A DNA stretch of 64,000 nt from an uncultured delta proteobacterium (GTDB lineage Bacteria; Desulfobacterota; Desulfobaccia; Desulfobaccales; 0-14-0-80-60-11): assembly GCA_963812015.1 (NCBI GenBank), contig CAWETI010000002.1, forward strand, positions 1,376,001 to 1,440,000. The letters run 5' to 3'. The position numbers were made by a program, and so were the translations under genes. A model generated the notes under the pieces. It was not told the DNA's origin and did not search any database. It saw nothing but the letters and a program-made list of their open reading frames with translations. Below, piece after piece: positions 11 through 59,980 of this stretch; position 1 is the first letter of the stretch; every line of letters starts with the position of its first letter.

Positions 11-2335
11 TTATTCCTTTTCGCCGTTTCCCCTTTTTCCCTTTTTCCCCTCTTCCTCCAGCCGGGCGGCGGCCACGGCCACCTGTCCCAGGGAGATGCA
101 GCCGTCGTTGGGGGGCGTCAGTTTATGAGTGAGCACCGCAAAGCCCCGCTCCTCCAAAGTTTGTTTCAGTCGGCTGAACAGCAGGGCGTTCTGCATCACC
201 CCACCGGATAGGGCCACCAGTTCCAGTCCGGTCCGATCACGGATCAGGTCGCAGGCGTCCGCCAGGAGCCGGACCAGGGAGTTATGGAAGCGGGCGGCGA
301 TGGCGGCCGCGGCCACGCCGGCCAGGTGATCGGTGACCGCGCCGCCGAAAATGGTCAGGGTGTCGAGCACCAGGGCGGCCCCCCCAATTTTTATGGCGGC
401 GGGATAGAAACCGTCTTCGTCTTCGTCGGCGACCATTTCCAGTTCCATGGCCGGCTGCCCCTCGTAGGTCCGGGTCCGGCAGACGTTAAGGGCCGCGGCC
501 ACGGCGTCGAAGAGGCGTCCGGCGCTGGAGGTGAGGGGCGAATTCAGCCCCTGAGCCAGCTGGCGGCGCAGGATGCGTTCTTCCAAGGGGGGAAAGTGCA
601 AACCCAGCCGCCGGGCCTGGTTGCCGAAGTCCTCGCCGTAGAGGCCGTAAAGATAGGCTGCGGCCATGCGGCCCGGATCCCGCACCGCGGCTTCTCCTCC
701 GGGAAGGCGGACGCAGGCGAGATGGCCGGCCCGGGTAAATCCGGCCAGGTCCGCCACCAGAAGTTCACCGCCCCAGACGGTGCCGTCGGGGCCGTAACCC
801 GTGCCGTCCAGGGCGATGCCGATAACGCGATCGGTGCGGCGGTTTTCCGCCAAACAGGCGGCGATATGGGCGTGATGGTGCTGCACCCCCATGAGGGACA
901 CCCCGGTGAGACCATGGGCATAGCGGGTGCTCAGATACAAGGGGTGGAGATCGTGGGCGACGATGGCCGGGTCCTTGCGGCACAGGGCTTTGAAATGGGT
1001 GATGGCGTGCTGGTAATAATCCAAGGTCTCCACCCGGTCCAGGTCGCCGATGTGCTGGCTGAGCAGGGCGACGCCCTGGGCGGCCAGGCAGAAGGTGTTT
1101 TTTTGTTCGGCCCCGACGCCCAAAATAGCCTCCGACTGCAAAGGCAAATAAATGGGGGCGGGGACAAAGCCCCGGGCCCGCCGGACCGGGATCACGTCAG
1201 AGCTCTTGACGGGGCGCACCACGGAGTCGTCGCAGGGCACCTGGATATCCCGGTCATGAAGCAGAAAGGCGTCGGCCAGGCCGGTTAGTTTGCGCCGGGC
1301 CTCGTCGTTGCCGTAGGCCAGGGGCTCTTCGCTGAGGTTGCCGCTGGTCATCACCAGGGCGGCGGGGCCGTGCTCCATGAGCAAAAAGTGCAGGGGAGTG
1401 TAAGGCAACATGAGTCCCAGGTAGCGGTGGCCCGGGGCCACGTGGGCCGAAACGCCGCCCTCGGGGCGCCGGCGGGCCAGGACGATGGGCCGCTCCCGGG
1501 AGAGCAGGAGTGACCGTTCCAGGTCGCCCAGCCGGCAGAGCCGCTCGGCTTCGGCCAGGTCCCGCACCATGAGGGCAAAAGGTTTGGCCACCCGGCCTTT
1601 GCGTTCCCTCAGGGTTTGGACGGCTCCGTCATGCCGGGCGTCGGCGGCCAGGTGAAAGCCCCCCAGGCCCTTGACGGCCACGATCTTCCCATGCATAAGC
1701 AAGCGCGCCGCGGCCGGGATGGCTTCTTGGTCCAGGCGCCGGTCCCCTTCTTCGAGCCAGACCCGGGGCCCGCAGACCGGACAGGCAGTGGGCTCGGCAT
1801 GAAAGCGCCGGTCCTCGGGATTCTCATATTCCGCCCGGCATTGGGGGCACAGGTCGAAGACAGCCATGGTGGTGTGGGGGCGGTCGTAGGGGACCTTCCG
1901 GATGATGGTGAACCGGGGGCCGCAGTTGGTGCAGTTGGTGAAGGGATACCGGTAGCGGCGATTCCGGGGGTCGGCAATGTCGGCCAGGCAGTCGTCACAG
2001 GTGGCCACGTCCGCAGGGATCAGGGCCGCAGTGGCGGCCAGATGCCGGCTCTCCCGGATGGCGAACCCGGTGCTTCCCTCGGGCCGGGATTCGATACTGA
2101 CCACCGCATCGATGCGGGCCAGGGCCGGGGCCTCCTGTTGAAGCTGGCCGATAAAGGTGTCCAGGGAGGTGAGGGGGCCTTCGATCTCGATTTCCACGCA
2201 CTGGGAAGTGTTGCACACCCAACCGGCCAGACGATGCAACCGGGCCAGCCGGTAGACAAAGGGCCGAAAACCGACCCCTTGTACCACGCCGGTCACCTGC
2301 AGCCGTTTTCGGGCCAGAGTCTCTGAAATCGCCAT
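11..2335 (-). CDS. hypF: [NiFe]-hydrogenase maturation carbamoyltransferase HypF
   Basis: Acylphosphatase-like N-terminus (GVVQGVGFRPF), zinc fingers (CDDC, CTNCGPR, CPQC, CPVCGP), KGLGGFHL, HDLHP, QHHHAH, SSAGRLFD, PPNDG. Start uncertain (GTG 2347 or ATG 2335). Confidence 0.95.
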   Translation of the reverse strand: MAISETLARKRLQVTGVVQGVGFRPFVYRLARLHRLAGWVCNTSQCVEIEIEGPLTSLDTFIGQLQQEAPALARIDAVVSIESRPEGSTGFAIRESRHLAATAALIPADVATCDDCLADIADPRNRRYRYPFTNCTNCGPRFTIIRKVPYDRPHTTMAVFDLCPQCRAEYENPEDRRFHAEPTACPVCGPRVWLEEGDRRLDQEAIPAAARLLMHGKIVAVKGLGGFHLAADARHDGAVQTLRERKGRVAKPFALMVRDLAEAERLCRLGDLERSLLLSRERPIVLARRRPEGGVSAHVAPGHRYLGLMLPYTPLHFLLMEHGPAALVMTSGNLSEEPLAYGNDEARRKLTGLADAFLLHDRDIQVPCDDSVVRPVKSSDVIPVRRARGFVPAPIYLPLQSEAILGVGAEQKNTFCLAAQGVALLSQHIGDLDRVETLDYYQHAITHFKALCRKDPAIVAHDLHPLYLSTRYAHGLTGVSLMGVQHHHAHIAACLAENRRTDRVIGIALDGTGYGPDGTVWGGELLVADLAGFTRAGHLACVRLPGGEAAVRDPGRMAAAYLYGLYGEDFGNQARRLGLHFPPLEERILRRQLAQGLNSPLTSSAGRLFDAVAAALNVCRTRTYEGQPAMELEMVADEDEDGFYPAAIKIGGAALVLDTLTIFGGAVTDHLAGVAAAAIAARFHNSLVRLLADACDLIRDRTGLELVALSGGVMQNALLFSRLKQTLEERGFAVLTHKLTPPNDGCISLGQVAVAAARLEEEGKKGKRGNGEKE
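14..53. repeat. 8-mer tandem repeat arm (AAAAGGGR-like on minus strand) forming the 3' end of hypF
   Basis: Minus strand reads AGAGGGGA AAAAGGGA AAAAGGGG AAACGGCG AAAAGGAA TAA; same family as 29251-29421. Confidence 0.7.
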
Positions 2336-12049: not shown

Positions 12050-13789
12050 GTGAAGGTAGTTCTGGCCCAAACCGCCGGTTTTTGCATCGGGGTCAAACGG
12101 GCATTGGAATTGGTCCTGAAGGCCATCAATGAAAACCAGGCTAAGATTTACACCTATGGTCCGCTGATCCACAACCCCCAGGTCCTGGAATTATTGCGAG
12201 AACGGGGGATTTCGATTCTCAAGCCTGGGGAGGACGTCCCCCCGGGACTGGTAGTGATCCGGGCCCACGGCATCCCTCCCCAGGAACGGCGCCTGCTGGA
12301 GCAGGGCGGCGGGCGCATCATCGACGCCACCTGCCCCAGGGTGGCCAAGGTCCAGGCCATCATCCAGCGCTGGGCCGCCAAAGGGTGCGCCACCCTGATC
12401 GTGGGGGATGCCGATCATCCGGAGGTGCGGGGCTTGATGGGCTACACCGAGGGGCGGGGTTACGTGGTGTCCACCTCCCGGGATGTCGCGGCCTTGCCTG
12501 ACTTGGACGAACTGATCGTGGTGGCCCAAACCACCCAGAGCAAATCCCAGTTCGATGCCCGGGTCCAGGAAATTACCGCCCGGTTTCCCCAGGCCCAGAT
12601 TTTTAATACCATCTGCGATGCCACCGCCTCCCGCCAGGCCGAGGTCCAGGAACTGTCCCGGCAGGCGGAGGCCCTGGTAGTGGTGGGGGGACGCAACAGC
12701 GGCAATACCCAAAGGCTGGTGGAGGTCTCCCAGGAGACCGGCATTGCCACCTACCAGGTGGAGACCGAGCAGGAACTGGACCTGGTGGAAATGAGCCGCT
12801 ATCAAACCGTGGCCGTGACGGCCGGAGCCTCCACGCCCCACTGGCTCATCAGCAACGTGGTGAACACCTTGAAGCATGCCTGGGCCTTTCGTCCCGGCTC
12901 CTGGACCAACTATCTGTACCGCGCCTGGCGCTTCGTCCTCAAGTCCAACTTATATGTGGCCATCGGCGCCGGGTCCCTCAGCTACACCTCATCCTTGCTG
13001 CAGCAGGTAGAGCCCCAGTGGAGCTATTTTTTCGTGGCCTTCTTCTATGTCTATGCCATGCACCTCCTCAACCATTTCACCGACACGGCCTCCAAGCTCA
13101 ACGATCCGGTCCAGACCATGTTTTACGGCCGCCACCGGCACTTTCTCCTGGTCACCGGCCTGCTCTCCGCCTGCATGGCCCTGGGCCTGGGAGCCTACCT
13201 GGGGCTGTTGCCGTTTATCTTTGTCTTGGTCATGAGCTGTATCGGCCTGATGTACAGTTTCAAAATCATCCCGGAGCGTCTGGCCCAGGCCACCGGCATT
13301 CACCGGCTCAAGGAGATCCCCGGCTCCAAGACCATGTTCACCTCGGTGGCCTGGGGGGTGCTGGCGGCCCTCATCCCGGTGGTGTGCTCCGACCAGGAAA
13401 TCTCCGGGGCCACCGCCATCGCCTTTTTCTTCGTGGCCGGCATGATCTTCATCCGTTCCGGCCTCTTTGAGATCATGGCCATCGAAGGGGACCGGGTGGT
13501 GGGCAAGGAAACCCTGGCCATCGCCCTGGGCAAAGAGCGCACCTTCATCCTGCTGTTCTGCGGTTCTCTGGCCTTTGTGGCCATGTTGCTCGTGGCCGCC
13601 TGGAGGGGCGCCATCCCTTCCCTGGGCTACACCCTGAGCCTGTCCGGGCTCTATATGCTGGGCTATCTCACCCTTTATCACCGGGGCCTGATGGAATCGA
13701 GCCTGTTGCTGGAGTCCCTGGTGGAAGGCAACATGATCCTGGCCGGCATCCTGGCCTTTATCTGGGATCCATATAACGTGATTTTTTAA
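12050..13789 (+). CDS. ispH: IspH (HMBPP reductase) fused to a C-terminal UbiA-like prenyltransferase domain
   Basis: AGFC, IHNP, IRAHG, DATCP, HPEV, AQTT, NTICDAT, NSGNT, TAGASTP; then a multi-TM domain with NHFTD and EGDRVVGKETL. Confidence 0.9.
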   Translation: MKVVLAQTAGFCIGVKRALELVLKAINENQAKIYTYGPLIHNPQVLELLRERGISILKPGEDVPPGLVVIRAHGIPPQERRLLEQGGGRIIDATCPRVAKVQAIIQRWAAKGCATLIVGDADHPEVRGLMGYTEGRGYVVSTSRDVAALPDLDELIVVAQTTQSKSQFDARVQEITARFPQAQIFNTICDATASRQAEVQELSRQAEALVVVGGRNSGNTQRLVEVSQETGIATYQVETEQELDLVEMSRYQTVAVTAGASTPHWLISNVVNTLKHAWAFRPGSWTNYLYRAWRFVLKSNLYVAIGAGSLSYTSSLLQQVEPQWSYFFVAFFYVYAMHLLNHFTDTASKLNDPVQTMFYGRHRHFLLVTGLLSACMALGLGAYLGLLPFIFVLVMSCIGLMYSFKIIPERLAQATGIHRLKEIPGSKTMFTSVAWGVLAALIPVVCSDQEISGATAIAFFFVAGMIFIRSGLFEIMAIEGDRVVGKETLAIALGKERTFILLFCGSLAFVAMLLVAAWRGAIPSLGYTLSLSGLYMLGYLTLYHRGLMESSLLLESLVEGNMILAGILAFIWDPYNVIF

Positions 13790-15917: not shown

Positions 15918-15950
15918 CGGTTTTCAGTTTTCAGTTTCCGGTTTTCGGTT
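15918..15950. repeat. 7-mer repeat arm (left of four-helix gene)
   Basis: CGGTTTT CAGTTTT CAGTTTC CGGTTTT CGGTT. Confidence 0.85.
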
Positions 15951-15956
15951 AAAAGC

Positions 15957-16325
15957 ATGGAGCAAAAAGGTTATAAGTCAAGATCTTACCGGTATTTAGA
16001 GGTGTGGAAGCTGTCAATCGATTTTGTGAAGAAAGTTTATCAGGTAACGCACAATTTTCCCGCTTCTGAAAATTATGGGCTAATAAACCAGATCAGGAGA
16101 GCCGCGGTTTCCATCCCTTCCAATATTGCCGAAGGCCAGGGCAGAAATTCCACCAAAGAATTTAAACAATTTCTGGCAATAAGCTTGGGTTCCCTGGCAG
16201 AATTAGAAACCCAGTTGATCATTGCCAAAGAAATAGAATACTTGACCCAGAATGGACTTGATGCTCTGCTGAGCCCCCTCGATAGAATAAGAAAAATGAT
16301 CAAGGGCTTATCAAAAGGAATATAA
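15957..16325 (+). CDS. Four-helix-bundle protein (23S rRNA-IVS protein / Avd-like)
   Basis: YRYLEVWK..FPASENYGLINQIRRAAVSIPSNIAEG..FLAISLGSLAELETQL signature; visibly AT-rich. Confidence 0.93.
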   Translation: MEQKGYKSRSYRYLEVWKLSIDFVKKVYQVTHNFPASENYGLINQIRRAAVSIPSNIAEGQGRNSTKEFKQFLAISLGSLAELETQLIIAKEIEYLTQNGLDALLSPLDRIRKMIKGLSKGI

Positions 16326-16367: not shown

Positions 16368-16404
16368 CCGAAAACCGAAAACCGAAAACCGAAAACTTAA
16401 AACG
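16368..16404. repeat. 7-mer repeat arm (right of four-helix gene), inverted relative to 15918-15950
   Basis: CCGAAAA x4, then CTTAAAA CG. Confidence 0.85.
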
Positions 16405-17681: not shown

Positions 17682-17770
17682 AATTCCCCCCTTTACCAAG
17701 GGGGGGGTAGGGGGGATTTTATAACTATCTTAAAATCCCCCTAAATCCCCCTTTTTCAAAGGGGGACTTT
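17682..17770. repeat. Composite palindromic repeat (CCCCCTTT-N-AAGGGGG doublet)
   Basis: Two CCCCCTTT..AAGGGGG hairpins joined by a TAGGGGG(G)ATTTT/AAAATCCCCCTA inverted repeat. Confidence 0.75.
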
Positions 17771-28586: not shown

Positions 28587-28651
28587 GGGACAGGGGACCA
28601 GGGGCTTTTTCGTAAGCGGCCCCGGCCACCCTCCCCCAAACCCCCACCCCT
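28587..28651 (+). repeat. Hairpin + C-rich-tail intergenic repeat
   Basis: GGGACAGGGGACCAGGGGC..GCCCCGGCCACCCTCCCCCAAACCCCCACCCC; same family as 33431, 33569, 35425, 41826. Confidence 0.6.
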
Positions 28652-28696
28652 TAAATTTTTCAGAAATTGTTGGGGGGCGCCCCCCACCCTACGCAC

Positions 28697-29245
28697 CTAT
28701 TTATTGATGATCAAATACGGTTTGATCTGCCTTACCTTCTTCGGGCCGAAGCCCAAAACCTTCTCCTCCAGCTCTTCAATCTTTTTATACGGGCCGTGCT
28801 TCTGACGGTAATCCACTATCCTTTGGGCCAGGGCCGGCCCGACCCCCGGGACGGCTGCCAGGTCCTCGGCGGTAGCCCGGTTGAGGTCAAGGGGCAGCCC
28901 CAGGGTGATAAGCTGGGCTCCGGGCATGGCCGTGACGAGGTAGCCGCCCTCCGGCGTCACCTCCACCCGGGTGCCGCTGGCGATGATTTTATTTGGGTCC
29001 TGGGCGGTCCCCGGAGCCCCGGCCTTCGTCCAGACTTCACCCAGGCTGGGTGGCTTCGGGAAGGAATAGACCCCGGGGTGGGAAACCTTCCCGGTGACCT
29101 CCACAAAGGCCAGGTTCAGGATCCCGGGCGGGGGCGGGGAGGGGGGAAAGAGCACGTGGGCCCGCCAGGCGTATAAAAGGAGGAGCGCGGCTCCCAGGAT
29201 AAGAATAACGCCTAATTGGGGGGGGCTGAAGTAAGGCAAACGCAT
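28697..29245 (-). CDS. comEA: ComEA-family helix-hairpin-helix DNA-binding protein
   Basis: N-terminal TM, SLBB-like VTGKVSHPGVY, LDLNRATAEDLAAVPGVGPALAQRI. Confidence 0.85.
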   Translation of the reverse strand: MRLPYFSPPQLGVILILGAALLLLYAWRAHVLFPPSPPPPGILNLAFVEVTGKVSHPGVYSFPKPPSLGEVWTKAGAPGTAQDPNKIIASGTRVEVTPEGGYLVTAMPGAQLITLGLPLDLNRATAEDLAAVPGVGPALAQRIVDYRQKHGPYKKIEELEEKVLGFGPKKVRQIKPYLIINK

Positions 29246-29250
29246 GGTCA

Positions 29251-29421
29251 AGGGGCGAAAAGGGAAAAAGGCGAAAAGGGAAAAAGGGGAGAAAAAAAGT
29301 CAGGCATCACTCGTGGCGCTCCCGTGTTTAGTGGGGAGAAGTGGAACGAGAAAAGTTAAGAGGCACCTGATTGACAGGTCCTTTCCCTTCTCGCCTTTTT
29401 CCCTCTTCTCCTTTTTTCCCC
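29251..29421. repeat. Inverted pair of 8-mer tandem repeat arms bracketing about 90 nt between cimA and comEA
   Basis: GGGGCGAA AAGGGAAA AAGGCGAA AAGGGAAA AAGGGGAG .. TTTCCCTT CTCGCCTT TTTCCCTC TTCTCCTT TTTTCCCC. Confidence 0.8.
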
Positions 29422-29425
29422 TGCT

Positions 29426-31090
29426 TTATCTGGCCCCTTGTTCATCCCTAAAAAGTTTATAGGTGATGCTGTCCACCAACGCCTGCCAGGAGGCGTCGAT
29501 GATATCGGTGGCCACCCCCACCGTATTCCACCACTCGTGGCCGTCCCGAGAGATGATGAGGACCCGCACCATGGCGCCGGTGCCGCGCATGCCGGGGAGC
29601 ACCCTGACCTTGTAGTCTTCCAGGATGATTTCCGTCAAGCGGGGATAAAACCGCACCAGGGCCTTGAGCAGGGCGTTGTACAGGGCGTCCACCGGGCCGT
29701 TGCCGAAGGCCGCGGTATGGACTTCATGCGCCCCTACCCGCACCCGGAGGGTAGCTTCAGGCACCGGGGGCTCCAAGCCTCCTACCTTCTGATCGATAAC
29801 CCGGTAGGACTGGAGCTGAAAGTATTCCTTGTGCTGGCCCAAGGCGGCCCGGAGGAGCAACTCCAGGGAGGCCTCGGCGTCTTCGAACTGGAAGCCCTGG
29901 GACTCCAGGTCCTTGACCTTGTCCAGGACGGTCTTGACGTTGCTCTCAAAGGGCGGTAGTTGCACCCCTTCATCCAGGTTGAGAATCTGCCTCAATTTAT
30001 CCAGGGCATGGCGCACCGCAGTATCGTGGGTCCCCAAATCCAGCCCCAATTCCTGGGCTCTCATGAGGATGTTGCCCCGGCCTGACAGGTCGGAGACCGG
30101 AATCACCCGAACATTACCCACCAGGGCCGGGTCGATATGCTCATAGGCCTTGGGATTGCGTTTCACCGCGGCGGCATGGATGCCCGCCTTGTGAGCGAAG
30201 GCGCTCTTGCCCACGTAGGGCTGGTAACGATTGGGACGGACGTTGGCCGCCTCGTAGACGAACCGGGAGACCTCGGTGAGGCGCTTGAGCTTGTTGTCGC
30301 CCAGGCAATCTATCCCCATCTTCAACTGGAGGTTGGGAATGATGGAACAGAGATTGGCGTTGCCGCAGCGCTCCCCCACGCCGTTGATGGTCCCCTGGAC
30401 CTGGCCGCACCCCAGTGCCACCGCGGCGATGGAGTTGGCCACCGCCAGTTCGGAATCATTGTGGGCGTGGATCCCCAGGGGTGCTTCGGGGAAGCGTTCC
30501 TGGACCGTCTTGATGATCTCGATCAACTCGCTGGTCAGGGTGCCGCCATTGGTGTCGCAGAGCACCAGGCACTCTGCGCCGCCGTTCAAAGCGGCCTGCA
30601 GGGCTTTCAGGGCGTAGTCCCGGTCGTCCTTGAAGCCATCGAAGAAATGCTCGGCGTCATAAAACAGCTCTTCCACCCGGGGCTTGAGATAGGCCAGGGA
30701 GCCGGTGATGAGTTCCAGGTTGCGCTCCGGGGTGGTTTGCAGGATCTCCTTGACCTGGAAGAGGGACGACTTGCCGAAGAGAGTCACCACTGACGCCCGG
30801 CTGATGAGGAGTTCCTGGAAAACAGGATCGGACTCCGGCGGCCGGTCCTTGTGGTGGGTGCTGCCAAACGCGGCGATGCGACTGACGCCCAACTCATAAT
30901 TGCGAATTTCGCCGAAGAAGTCCTTGTCCTTGGGGTTGGCCCCGGGCCAGCCGCCTTCAATGTAATGAATGCCCAGATGCGCCAGCTTTTGGGCGATGCG
31001 GATTTTGTCGGCCAGGGACAGATTGAAATCCTCGGCCTGGGTACCGTCTCTCAAGGTGGTGTCATAGATTTTTACCTGGCGCATGGTCAT
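29426..31090 (-). CDS. cimA: Citramalate synthase (LeuA/CimA family)
   Basis: YDTTLRDGTQAE, IEGGWPG, DAEHFFDG, LCDTNGG, HAHND, GERCGN, AFAHKAG, GNGPV. Confidence 0.9.
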   Translation of the reverse strand: MTMRQVKIYDTTLRDGTQAEDFNLSLADKIRIAQKLAHLGIHYIEGGWPGANPKDKDFFGEIRNYELGVSRIAAFGSTHHKDRPPESDPVFQELLISRASVVTLFGKSSLFQVKEILQTTPERNLELITGSLAYLKPRVEELFYDAEHFFDGFKDDRDYALKALQAALNGGAECLVLCDTNGGTLTSELIEIIKTVQERFPEAPLGIHAHNDSELAVANSIAAVALGCGQVQGTINGVGERCGNANLCSIIPNLQLKMGIDCLGDNKLKRLTEVSRFVYEAANVRPNRYQPYVGKSAFAHKAGIHAAAVKRNPKAYEHIDPALVGNVRVIPVSDLSGRGNILMRAQELGLDLGTHDTAVRHALDKLRQILNLDEGVQLPPFESNVKTVLDKVKDLESQGFQFEDAEASLELLLRAALGQHKEYFQLQSYRVIDQKVGGLEPPVPEATLRVRVGAHEVHTAAFGNGPVDALYNALLKALVRFYPRLTEIILEDYKVRVLPGMRGTGAMVRVLIISRDGHEWWNTVGVATDIIDASWQALVDSITYKLFRDEQGAR

Positions 31091-31097
31091 TCCTCTT

Positions 31098-32339
31098 TTA
31101 AGTGGATGCCTTCCGTTTCGGCGGGGGCGTCTCCAACCCGAAGGCGTCGTGGAGCACCCGTACGGCCAATTCGCCGTATTTATCTTCAATGACGCAGGAA
31201 ATTTTGATCTCCGAGGTGCTGATCATCAAGATGTTGATGTTTTCGGCGGCCATGGCTTCGAACATGCGGGCCGCCACCCCGGCGTTGTTCTTCATACCCA
31301 CGCCGACCACGGAGACCTTGGCGATGTTCTCTTCGCTTAATACTTTCTCGGCCCCGATATCGGCGGCCACCGGCTTGACAATCTCGAGGGTCTTCTTCAG
31401 GTCACCCTTGGGCACGGTAAAAGTCAGGTCAGTGTGGCCCTCGATGCTGGTGTTCTGGATGATCATGTCCACCACGATGTTGGCATCAGCCACCGGCTGG
31501 AACAGGTGTATCGCAACTCCGGGGCGGTCGGGAACCCGGGTGATGGTGACCCGAGCATCATTTCGGCTGAGGGCAACCCCGGATACTGGCACAATTTCCA
31601 TTTCTTCATCCTCCACGGTCACCAGGGTGCCCGGCTCCTCGGAAAAACTGCTGCGTACCACCAGGGGTACGCTATACCGCCTGGCAAAACCCACGGATCG
31701 GATCTCCAGAACTTTGGCCCCCATAGAAGCCAACTCCAGCATTTCGTCATACGAGATGCGCTCCAGTTTCCTGGCCTTGGGGTAGATGCGGGGGTCAGTG
31801 GTGTAGACCCCGTCCACGTCGGTATAGATTTCACAGAGGTCGGCTTTCAAGGTTGCGGCAATGGCCACCGCGGTGGTATCGGAGCCGCCCCGGCCCAAAG
31901 TGGTGATGTTCCCCACTTCGTCCACCCCCTGGAACCCGGCTACGGTGACGATGCGGTTTTTTTTCAATTCTTCTTTAATGCGGGCGGTATCGATGCCCAG
32001 GATTCGGGCTCGCCCATAGGCCCGATCGGTATAAATCCGGGCCTGGTGGGAGAGCAGGGAGGTGGCCGGCACGCCCTGGGACCGGAGAAACATACTGAAC
32101 AGGGACACGGTGACCTGCTCGCCGGTAGCCAGCAGCACGTCCAGTTCCCGGGGGTCCGGGTCTTCGGACAATTCCTTGGCCAGATTAATGAGGCGGTCGG
32201 TTTCGCCGGCCATGGCGCTCAACACCACCACCATTTTATTGCCGTCTCGCCAGCCTTTGACCACCCGGTTGGCCACATTGGCAATGCGGTCGGGGTTGGC
32301 CACCGAGGTGCCGCCATACTTTTGCACAATGATAGGCAC
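31098..32339 (-). CDS. lysC: Aspartate kinase
   Basis: VQKYGGTSV, TTLGRGGSDTTA, TDVDG, two ACT domains, ISTSEIKIS. Confidence 0.97.
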   Translation of the reverse strand: MPIIVQKYGGTSVANPDRIANVANRVVKGWRDGNKMVVVLSAMAGETDRLINLAKELSEDPDPRELDVLLATGEQVTVSLFSMFLRSQGVPATSLLSHQARIYTDRAYGRARILGIDTARIKEELKKNRIVTVAGFQGVDEVGNITTLGRGGSDTTAVAIAATLKADLCEIYTDVDGVYTTDPRIYPKARKLERISYDEMLELASMGAKVLEIRSVGFARRYSVPLVVRSSFSEEPGTLVTVEDEEMEIVPVSGVALSRNDARVTITRVPDRPGVAIHLFQPVADANIVVDMIIQNTSIEGHTDLTFTVPKGDLKKTLEIVKPVAADIGAEKVLSEENIAKVSVVGVGMKNNAGVAARMFEAMAAENINILMISTSEIKISCVIEDKYGELAVRVLHDAFGLETPPPKRKAST

Positions 32340-53956: not shown

Positions 53957-54910
53957 TTATTTAGCCGGTGGATAGCCGCTCCATTTTCTGGCCAGGGTCT
54001 CGTCCACTTCCACCCGTAACGGAGTCATTTCCACAATCGGGATGGCCTTGGGCCGCTCCCCCGCCAGGACCCGCCGGGCCAGGCCGGCCAGGTCTTCCCC
54101 CAGGCGGCGGTAATCCAGGGCCACCCACAACACAGCCCCCTGGTGCGGCTCATCGGGGGCGCCGCTCACCACCCTGACCTTCATGCGGCGGCCCCAGTCC
54201 AGGGCCAGGGGCGCATAGCGCGCGGCGCTTTCGGCCGGGGGCAGATAGATGACCCGGGCTCCCCGATTCATCAGCCGCTCCAGGCCGACTGCGTCGGTGG
54301 CGGCCGCGGCGCTGGTCTCGGTCAAGGGCTGCACCCCGAAGCGCGGCGCCTCGGTCTCGAAACGCCGGGCGAAATCCGCGGCCATCCCGTCGGTGGGGTC
54401 ATAGAGGAGACCCCAGGCGCCTTGCCCCAGCAGGCTGGCGCCGTGCTGCAGCGCCGCATCCAGGGGCGCCGGGGACGCAATGCCGGTGACGTTCTCCTGG
54501 TGAATGCCGGGGTGGGCCGGATCATAAGCGGCTTTGGTAAAATAAGGGTTGGCCACCAGGCCGAAGATCACGGGAATCTGTTTCACCACCGGGGCCACCC
54601 AGAGGAGCGCCGGGGTGCCCAGCACCACCAAGAGCCGGGGACGGGTCTCTCGCACGCGGCGCAGAGTTTCCTGCCCCTGAGGCCCGAACTCCGGGACCAA
54701 AACCACTTCCACGGGTCCTGCCCCCAGTTTGGCCTTAAATCCGGCCACCGTCTGGCGCAGCCTGGGGGAATCCGGGGAGCCGAAGACGATGATGGGACCC
54801 GGGGCGCGGCTGCAGCTGGTCAAGGTCACCAAACCCATAAGCAGCAGGGTGCGGAGAAGTTTTCGGTTTTCGGTTTTCGGTTTTCGGTTAAAGGCTTGGG
54901 GTTGTAACAT
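53957..54910 (-). CDS. ABC-type substrate-binding lipoprotein
   Basis: Lipobox LTSC, LVVLGTPA, PVIFGLV, ENVTGI, LARRVLAGERP. Confidence 0.75.
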   Translation of the reverse strand: MLQPQAFNRKPKTENRKLLRTLLLMGLVTLTSCSRAPGPIIVFGSPDSPRLRQTVAGFKAKLGAGPVEVVLVPEFGPQGQETLRRVRETRPRLLVVLGTPALLWVAPVVKQIPVIFGLVANPYFTKAAYDPAHPGIHQENVTGIASPAPLDAALQHGASLLGQGAWGLLYDPTDGMAADFARRFETEAPRFGVQPLTETSAAAATDAVGLERLMNRGARVIYLPPAESAARYAPLALDWGRRMKVRVVSGAPDEPHQGAVLWVALDYRRLGEDLAGLARRVLAGERPKAIPIVEMTPLRVEVDETLARKWSGYPPAK

Positions 54911-55015
54911 ACTCACAGGGCAAGCGTTCCCAAAAAACCTGGTTAAAACAGTTCTAACCGCAATGGCGACAGGCCGTGAATAGGTGGCTCACGTTACCTG
55001 AAAACCGGAAACCGG
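54858..55015. repeat. Inverted pair of 7-mer arms bracketing about 105 nt between lepB and the ABC lipoprotein
   Basis: GTTTTCG x4 at 54859-54889 and CTGAAAA CCGGAAA CCGG at 54998-55015. Confidence 0.75.
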
Positions 55016-59127: not shown

Positions 59128-59201
59128 GCTATCAACTATCACCAGTCAGCCAAAAACTAAAAACCAAAAAACCAAAAACCGACTGCTCACTGTTAACCGC
59201 T
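59128..59201. repeat. 7-mer-periodic repeat tract after the metallophosphoesterase stop
   Basis: CTATCAA CTATCAC CAGTCAG CCAAAAA CTAAAAA CCAAAAA ACCAAAAA CCGACTG CTCACTG. Confidence 0.65.
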
Positions 59202-59954: not shown

Positions 59955-59980
59955 AGCTTTCGGTTTCCGGTTTTTGGTGA
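59955..59980. repeat. 7-mer arm just before the metallophosphoesterase start
   Basis: AGCTTT CGGTTTC CGGTTTT TGGTGA; complementary to 59150-59180. Confidence 0.6.

Follow-up and report, generated by a model that had tools for sequence, protein, structure and literature searches.

The cimA-like gene (citramalate/isopropylmalate synthase) and the downstream comEA gene of an uncultured delta proteobacterium (Desulfobaccales; assembly GCA_963812015.1) are separated by a spacer of 180 nucleotides (nt). The spacer is wholly occupied by an element with inverted octamer arms, one next to the cimA stop codon and the other next to the comEA start codon. An original prediction from the sequence proposed that pairing of the arms brings stop and start together, making the insertion translationally silent through ribosome bridging or RNA excision, or acting as a coupling switch. 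The question raised by this locus is what the element is and whether its position between stop and start reflects such a role. The locus lies in a window of 64,000 nt, the whole stretch of DNA analysed (contig CAWETI010000002.1, positions 1,376,001 to 1,440,000); positions are those of the window, and contig positions carry a prefix such as C2 or C3. The element is a gene-less, octamer-armed variant of a widespread but poorly understood class of cassettes of the intervening-sequence (IVS) or paired simple-sequence-repeat (SSR) type, which usually hold a small gene of the IVP family (23S rRNA intervening-sequence protein, also S23p; PF05635). With a probability of about 0.5, it is a gene-less IVS-type hairpin cassette that would be co-transcribed with its neighbours and cut in its stem by RNase III, the mechanism being suggested by precedent.

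Structure of the element between cimA and comEA

The inverted bracket at the cimA-comEA junction is confirmed as a non-random structure. Along the mRNA, the cimA stop is followed by AGCA and GGGGAAAA, which opens a purine run; the loop and a pyrimidine run follow, ending in CGCCCC ahead of TTGACC and the comEA ATG (Table 1). The purine arm thus begins 4 nt past the stop and the pyrimidine arm ends 6 nt ahead of the ATG, the distances that had been predicted. The predicted pairing of 8-mers also stands. However, the 8-mers are only the ends of arms of ~45-50 nt composed of tandem octamers, (GGSGAAAA)n in the first arm and (TTTTCSCC)n in the second. Read on the plus strand, GGCGAAAA and GGGAAAAA units lie at 29250-29299 and their complements at 29380-29424. 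A 16-nt double unit recurs at 8-nt spacing, with four copies in one arm and three in the other, and the double-octamer word has 9 matches in the window compared with 1.12 expected (0/100 shuffles reach 9). The best ungapped inverted matches between the arms span 32 nt (88%) and 30 nt (90%).

The RNA fold of the spacer contains 35 arm-to-arm base pairs (bp) in helix segments of 3, 2, 2, 2 and 26 bp from the outside. At the outer end, nt 5 past the stop is the first to pair, and on the other side the UG of the comEA AUG is included. The predicted loop of ~90 nt is obtained only when the whole arms pair, in which case it measures about 95 nt. The 211-nt fold has an energy of -82.4 kcal/mol compared with -60.95 ± 5.11 kcal/mol for shuffled sequences (z -4.2; none of 200 shuffles as stable).

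The cimA-comEA pair is preceded by an aspartate kinase gene and followed, downstream of comEA, by TsaD. No Shine-Dalgarno (SD) motif was found between the pyrimidine arm and the comEA start. However, GGAG, GAGG or AGGA occurs at -20 to -5 in only 1016 of the 2384 called genes (43%), which rules out that the comEA start is special in this respect. Scanning of 28600-29900 gave no promoter-like site and two terminator matches compared with 1.9 expected. The minus-strand match (29195-29181) lies inside comEA, and the spacer's plus-strand match runs antisense to both genes. An intrinsic terminator in the spacer was rejected, as no short GC-rich stem with a T-run is present there on the gene strand. 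The Rfam 15 scan of the window gave no match at the gathering score; at E<=1 the spacer matched mainly plant microRNA-precursor hairpins, with weak IMES-5 and snoR125 matches, all far below the gathering score.

Table 1. Positions of the cimA-comEA element, its genes and further array features of the window
Feature	Position	Strand	Remarks
cimA-like open reading frame (ORF)	29426..31189	-	Pfam HMGL-like 4.9e-42, HCS_D2, LeuA_dimer 3.4e-27
cimA-like stop codon TAA	29428-29426	-	ORF reading
5' mRNA arm	29380..29424	-	purine-rich octamers GGGGAAAA/GGAGAAGA/GGGAAAAA/GGCGAGAA...
Loop/core, about 80-95 nt	29300..29379	-	no ORF; blocks conserved within the genus (GGAG..CGCCAYGAGGGATGC)
3' mRNA arm	29250..29299	-	pyrimidine-rich octamers UUUUCGCC/UUUUUCCC...
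Uninterrupted 26-bp helix	29257-29282 (3' half) with 29383-29408	-	RNA fold
comEA ORF	28697..29251	-	Pfam HHH_3 2.1e-20
comEA start ATG	29245-29243	-	in-frame TTG 29251-29249; no SD motif upstream
IVP cassette, (GTTTTCR)n arm	15920-15950	+	heptamer-armed cassette
IVP cassette, PF05635 ORF	15957-16325	+	
IVP cassette, (CGAAAAC)n arm	16368-16400	+	
Octamer pair, right (pyrimidine) arm	28..48		left arm just before window start, C2:1375952-1375988
(GTTTTCG)x4.4 array	54859-54889		partner CTGAAAACCGGAAACCGG at about 54998-55015, found by reading
Heptamer arm pair	59150-59180 and 59957-59980		bracket a metallophosphoesterase gene (Pfam); rare A-rich-first polarity

A genome-wide family of paired arrays

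The element belongs to a family of paired arrays that recurs throughout the genome (3.96 Mb, 58% G+C, 6 contigs). TRF detected 164 period-7 and 62 period-8 arrays of at least three copies. An inverted partner, defined by <=4 mismatches across three units at a distance of <=3 kb, was found for 70 of 242 merged 7/8-mer arrays. The control orientations gave 14 (direct), 7 (reversed) and 23 (complemented), the last of which is inflated, as some units are near-palindromic by rotation. After de-duplication, 49 inverted pairs remain, with inner distances of 11-40 nt, 80-230 nt (the main group) or, for some, 375-840 nt. The predicted brackets are real paired arms around inserted material.

The pairs have a fixed polarity. 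The purine arm comes first in all 12 octamer pairs and the T-rich arm in 11 of 13 GTTTTCG-like pairs; overall, the arm with G>C comes first in 40/43 pairs, on either strand. Avoidance of an exposed Rho loading site was not supported as the cause of the polarity: single arrays between co-directional genes are G>C on the sense strand in 42 cases and C>G in 35 (p 0.49).

All-against-all blastn comparisons of the elements showed matches of >=45 nt only in the arms, except for two 100% duplicates on small contigs; the core of the cimA-comEA element is unrelated to the cores of the other pairs. Identity with dispersed repeats such as miniature inverted-repeat transposable elements or REP was rejected, as blastn showed no full-length consensus shared among the copies. 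REP/BIME, ERIC and Correia-type repeats are co-transcribed operon hairpins with a conserved full-length consensus, some of which are RNase III targets or mRNA stabilisers. In contrast, what the array pairs described here have in common is the repeat style of their arms alone, and their cores all differ.

Placement of the arrays at gene junctions

Placement was analysed on author-built, crude codon-usage gene calls with known errors (the aspartate kinase region is mis-called). The intergenic share of the genome is 21%, but 164 of the 242 arrays are intergenic. As predicted, the arms lie close to gene boundaries: 74 of these 164 arrays are <=10 nt from one, compared with 32 ± 4 for random positions in the same gaps. 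The further arms that had been placed next to start or stop codons in the window (15957, 16414, 17562, 13789, 20147 and 59950) are 7-mer runs about 4-13 nt from a start or stop, although the run at 13789 is weak.

The genes on either side are co-directional for 24 of the 28 clean intergenic pairs, convergent for three and divergent for one. Subtraction of the element from the spacer leaves a median residual of 24.5 nt for the 24 co-directional pairs (23 with the duplicate counted once), and <=50 nt in 22 of them. In the background, 38% of 2442 co-directional gaps are <=50 nt, and such gaps hold 2% of the intergenic bases. An element wedged into a spacer of originally a few to about 30 nt would necessarily have its arms close to stop and start. 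The filling of formerly tight junctions is the simplest geometric account of arms that hug stop and start codons. An SD motif of their own, between arm and start, is present in 9 of the 23 genes downstream of array pairs.

The same junction in related genomes

The element is inherited at the cimA-comEA junction throughout the genus. Of 41 relatives sampled, 30 cimA-comEA loci were fetched, all of which (30/30) are syntenic, and the orthologous element is present at the junction in 12 of the 13 congener loci. The purine arm begins a few nt past the stop in most congeners and farther away in two (G011, G014), and the pyrimidine arm stops 2-10 nt short of the start. ComEA protein identity among the congeners falls to 64-79%, and in 12/13 the arms still keep their period and complementarity. 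RNAalifold analysis across the congeners showed 24 conserved stem pairs, and blocks of the loop are conserved as well.

The loop shows two further features. In G014 (locus L010) it contains a nested insert of ~190 nt with inverted ends of its own, indicating that the loop tolerates further insertions. A conserved block at 29300-29345 (alignment A1) has an SD and ATG look-alike (AGGAG..GCCATGAGGGATGC) in six aligned relatives; the ATG is ACG in the present genome and in G005, G010, G016 and G015, and is also missing in G002. The block may represent the decayed remains of a short ORF, or else an RNA motif.

Outside the genus the junction is filled differently. Other genera of the family have heptamer arrays, a G-rich/C-rich hairpin or other palindromes, and in one sister genus (L019) cimA and comEA are only 2 nt apart (TGA CC ATG). 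Loci of the sister family have either short spacers or spacers with terminator-like GC-rich hairpins (L022, L026, L028), and at several of these loci the comEA alignment begins within about 10 nt of the stop, a position that refers to the alignment start. A different repeat family, G-run/C-run palindromes (AAATCCCCCT twice at 17690-17770 of the window), recurs in the genome and in the cimA-comEA spacers of three relatives (L013, L015, L016).

Relation to cassettes carrying an IVP gene

The window also contains a heptamer-armed cassette with an intact IVP gene (Table 1). Its product of 122 aa matches 23S_rRNA_IVP at E 5.3e-41 and is the only copy in the genome; a terminator-like hairpin precedes the cassette. 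PF05635 genes are present in 90/151 genomes of the phylum, often in many copies, and 30 of the 347 matches were examined for flanking repeats. The two flanks of the ORF (170 nt upstream, 200 nt downstream) share an inverted match of >=15/18 in 24/30 loci, compared with 6/180 cross-locus controls and 6/30 in direct orientation. This count in 18-nt windows replaced an RNA duplex energy test, which was a poor discriminator (own median -72 vs. cross-locus -51; 4/30 own values beyond the 1st percentile). TRF arrays flank the gene on both sides in 19/30 loci, and their unit changes from locus to locus.

Comparisons of the locus orthologous to the window cassette in 15 genomes showed the IVP gene in 12. 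The site is empty in two genomes (G012, G004), where the terminator is followed by the SD motif and ATG, and in one genome (G007) the two arms remain but the IVP gene is reduced to its first ~7 codons, a gene-less derivative formed by internal deletion. Gene-less members of the class can thus arise by internal deletion. In 9 of the 12 cassettes the two arms agree in their unit variant, which varies among genomes (GTTTTCR, RGTTTTT, GTTTTCT or SGTTTTT), and the variant goes with the IVP type: GTTTTCR arms accompany IVPs 87-100% identical to that of the window, and GTTTTTR arms accompany IVPs with 64-66% identity.

The octamer arms themselves also surround an IVP gene. In one congener (G005; C24, L204) an intact IVP gene is flanked by octamer arms with 94-97% identity to the cimA-comEA arms over 30-38 nt, and this cassette is likewise located between a stop and the next ATG. 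Comparison by blastn of the G005 cassette with the cimA-comEA spacers showed matches limited to the arms. The orthologous site of the present genome is an empty spacer of 29 nt (C3:673313-673341), which contains a small palindrome, GGGCGC..GCGCC, that could be a target or a footprint. No target-site duplication was seen on reading filled against empty sites, at either the IVP locus or the site of the G005 cassette. A pattern scan covering a single genome from each species detected the octamer array at >=121 loci of many phyla. Among the matches listed, the purine-first array has its pyrimidine partner downstream in 37 cases and upstream in two, within short flanks, and an IVP gene lies beside the array at four of the listed loci, in other phyla. 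The cimA-comEA element has no PF05635 gene and is therefore a gene-less relative, not a full member, of the IVP cassette class. A link between such arrays and IVP genes outside rRNA was not found in the open-access literature on the genomic context of PF05635.

Comparison with known systems

The closest known system is the 23S rRNA IVS with an S23p ORF, for which the available text of Warrier et al. (2016, PMC4990558) describes a 28-bp terminal stem, variable-number tandem heptamers before the ORF and excision by RNase III. Terminal inverted repeats pair into a long stem in both cases (28 bp there; 35 bp including the 26-bp helix here), and the PF05635 family sits between such arms in the window and in the congener. 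Unlike the IVS as described there, the cimA-comEA element is located in an mRNA spacer between protein genes rather than in helix 25 or 45 of 23S rRNA and has no ORF; its octamer units form the whole arms, and its excision is conjectural. No 7/8-mer array is present inside the single 23S rRNA gene of the genome (C3:356676-359689). A (GGGGAAAA)x4.6 array is located about 6 kb upstream of that gene (C3:350513-350557).

The element is a paired inverted SSR array of the kind known from Xanthomonas and Geobacter, with arms on opposite strands, convergent, intergenic and at variable distance. The Xanthomonas GGGAATC heptamers form 70 and 75 convergent intergenic pairs of unknown function (Rehm et al. 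2015, PMC4692102). As far as the available parts of that article describe them, they likewise comprise two convergent tandem sites, one per strand, with the G-rich arm first, and are conserved among relatives with shifting copy number. They differ in the unit, in having one unit family per genome and in being discussed as G-quadruplex formers; a link to IVP genes or operon junctions does not appear in those parts of PMC4692102. In Geobacter metallireducens, "global regulator binding sites" consist of three to five tandem units of 7-9 nt in opposite-strand pairs (Aklujkar et al. 2009, PMC2700814). According to the text available, these pairs resemble the present ones in their variable distance and in the several unit families per genome, and one of them lies between proB and proA. 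Unlike here, they are interpreted as protein-binding DNA sites. The TAACTGA heptamers of Beggiatoaceae, cyanobacteria and Bacteroidetes, for which a role in translation was proposed (MacGregor 2015, PMC4679880), are also tandem units a few nt upstream of starts, in spacers without a canonical ribosome-binding site. However, in the accessible part of that paper almost all of them are single direct arrays rather than inverted pairs, with 169 direct sets compared with one indirect repeat.

Proposed mechanism and alternatives

In the preferred reading, the element would be transcribed together with cimA and comEA, and the arms would pair into a stem of ~35 bp with the 26-bp perfect helix. RNase III would cleave this stem, as it does the terminal stem of 23S rRNA intervening sequences. 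Cleavage would split the message between cimA and comEA and remove the loop, leaving comEA with a short pyrimidine-rich leader and freeing its start codon from partial pairing at the foot of the stem. We infer transcription through the element, its cleavage and any effect on comEA from the structure and from the precedent. Cleavage by RNase III is, by analogy, the likeliest mechanism, and it is preferred because intervening sequences provide a published precedent, the genome has an RNase III gene and a perfect helix of 26 bp suffices as an RNase III substrate. The RNA excision of the original prediction may hold in this form, the analogy being with the 23S rRNA IVS in the available text of PMC4990558.

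Several observations weigh against this reading. The present genome has no octamer-type IVP gene, as its sole IVP gene has GTTTTCR arms. No IVP remnant was detectable in the cimA-comEA loop, which leaves an origin of this particular element by deletion conjectural: an author-built hidden Markov model from 27 IVP sequences, run on six-frame translations of 175 sequences, matched only the five true IVP genes. One congener (G001) has lost the right arm and kept only part of the left, and the arms are unequal in G016 (about 17 vs. 50 nt) and G008 (about 27 vs. 100 nt). A compensatory change is seen at only one of the 24 conserved stem positions that pair. Arm mismatches on the sense strand are as often G-U as A-C, with 61 vs. 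60 overall (22 vs. 15 in 20 pairs of the present genome, 24 vs. 29 in the IVP loci and 15 vs. 16 in 13 spacers). The lack of a G-U excess argues against selection on the mRNA fold, which should enrich G-U, and the pattern fits a DNA-level or wobble-blind cause of the arm complementarity. No metatranscriptome contig bridged cimA, spacer and comEA in 4 of 17 runs, which hold at most 0.14 of the sampled words. The contigs obtained are short and mostly 90-95% alike; the joints at 29289-29394 carry other letters between the arms, indicating other elements with like arms.

The symmetry of the mismatches, the scarce covariation and the analogical basis of the RNA steps give real weight to two alternatives. 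The first is that the element is an inert relic of a lost cassette, a compact hairpin that does little damage in an operon junction and whose arms would be kept alike by DNA-level processes such as slippage or template switching between them. Strand-symmetric mismatches, the independent drift of arm lengths with the loss of one arm in G001, the missing cognate IVP gene and the decay evident in G007 would all be expected of such a remnant. However, the period and complementarity of the arms persist in 12/13 congeners despite the divergence of comEA, blocks of the loop are conserved, and the pairs are strongly biased to tight junctions; a relic is considered unlikely.

The second is that the tandem units are DNA- or RNA-level sites for a protein, such as an IVP-type four-helix bundle or a nucleoid or global regulator, with the arms as inverted termini of a cassette that is mobile or regulated. 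This agrees with periodic units of fixed polarity and strand-symmetric complementarity, with the tracking of IVP type by arm unit at one orthologous locus, with the occurrence of both filled and empty sites, and with the interpretation of the similar Geobacter pairs as regulator sites in the text available of PMC2700814. Against it, the only IVP of the genome has different arms, filled and empty sites differ by no visible target-site duplication, and identical copies that would hint at recent movement are limited to the two duplicates on small contigs. On balance such sites are a distinctly doubtful explanation.

Translational coupling, in which the stem would join the cimA stop to the comEA start and a terminating ribosome would melt the outer stem and re-initiate across the 180-nt insert, appears improbable. 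The outer helices of 3, 2, 2 and 2 bp begin 5 nt past the stop and take in the UG of the start codon, such that a ribosome at the stop would probably open them. The preference of pairs for tight junctions and the close genes of L019 and of several sister-family loci are also compatible with coupling. However, the predicted coupling switch finds no specific support: a missing SD motif is ordinary in this genome and 9/23 downstream genes have their own, 3/28 pairs lie between convergent genes, where coupling is meaningless, the window IVP cassette follows a terminator-like hairpin, and G-U is not in excess. We know of no published case of bacterial shunting across a 35-bp stem. Similarly, there is little probability that hairpin cassettes are retained at operon junctions for a stem that returns stop and start to their original proximity, so that a ribosome finishing cimA would melt the weak outer helices, expose the SD-less comEA start a few nt away across the stem base and re-initiate; if this were true, coupling would be carried across a 180-nt insert and such insertions would be "translationally silent".

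Punctuation of the mRNA without cleavage, by a barrier to 3' exonucleases or a partial terminator giving more cimA than comEA, as with REP hairpins in operons, would agree with a very stable stem between two functionally unrelated genes, with the terminator-like hairpins of the sister family at this junction and with the established role of REP-type mRNA stabilisers, but appears improbable: the spacer has no usual hairpin with T-run on the gene strand, the minus-strand match lying inside comEA, and the class also brackets whole genes.

Other arrays and their cargo

Heptamer-arm pairs surround single ORFs of 163-228 aa at four places in the genome (C2:16900-17520, C3:252131-253024, C3:294398-295183 and C3:955916-956634). 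Pfam searches of these four cargo ORFs gave no family at E<=0.01; the codon-usage gene caller overlooked three of them and called C2:16968-17459. They may be foreign cargo other than IVP. The array at 54859-54889 reads (CGAAAAC)x4 on the minus strand. It falls within the longest ORF, 53957..54916(-), where it would encode a charged NRKPKTENRK ahead of a lipoprotein-like signal peptide. The array may have been absorbed into the coding 5' end of this ORF.

Implications

Bacterial heptamer and octamer arrays and the PF05635 family are two long-standing unexplained features. The cimA-comEA locus provides a clean, genus-wide, gene-less example located precisely between a stop and a start, with the same arms around an intact IVP gene in a congener and, at a sister locus, the deletion step that yields a gene-less hairpin. 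With one stem and two genes, the locus is a simple system for RNase III punctuation of operon mRNAs, for translation of the next gene or for tolerated relics. Any model is constrained by the strand-symmetric pattern of arm mismatches and by the fixed G-rich-first polarity.

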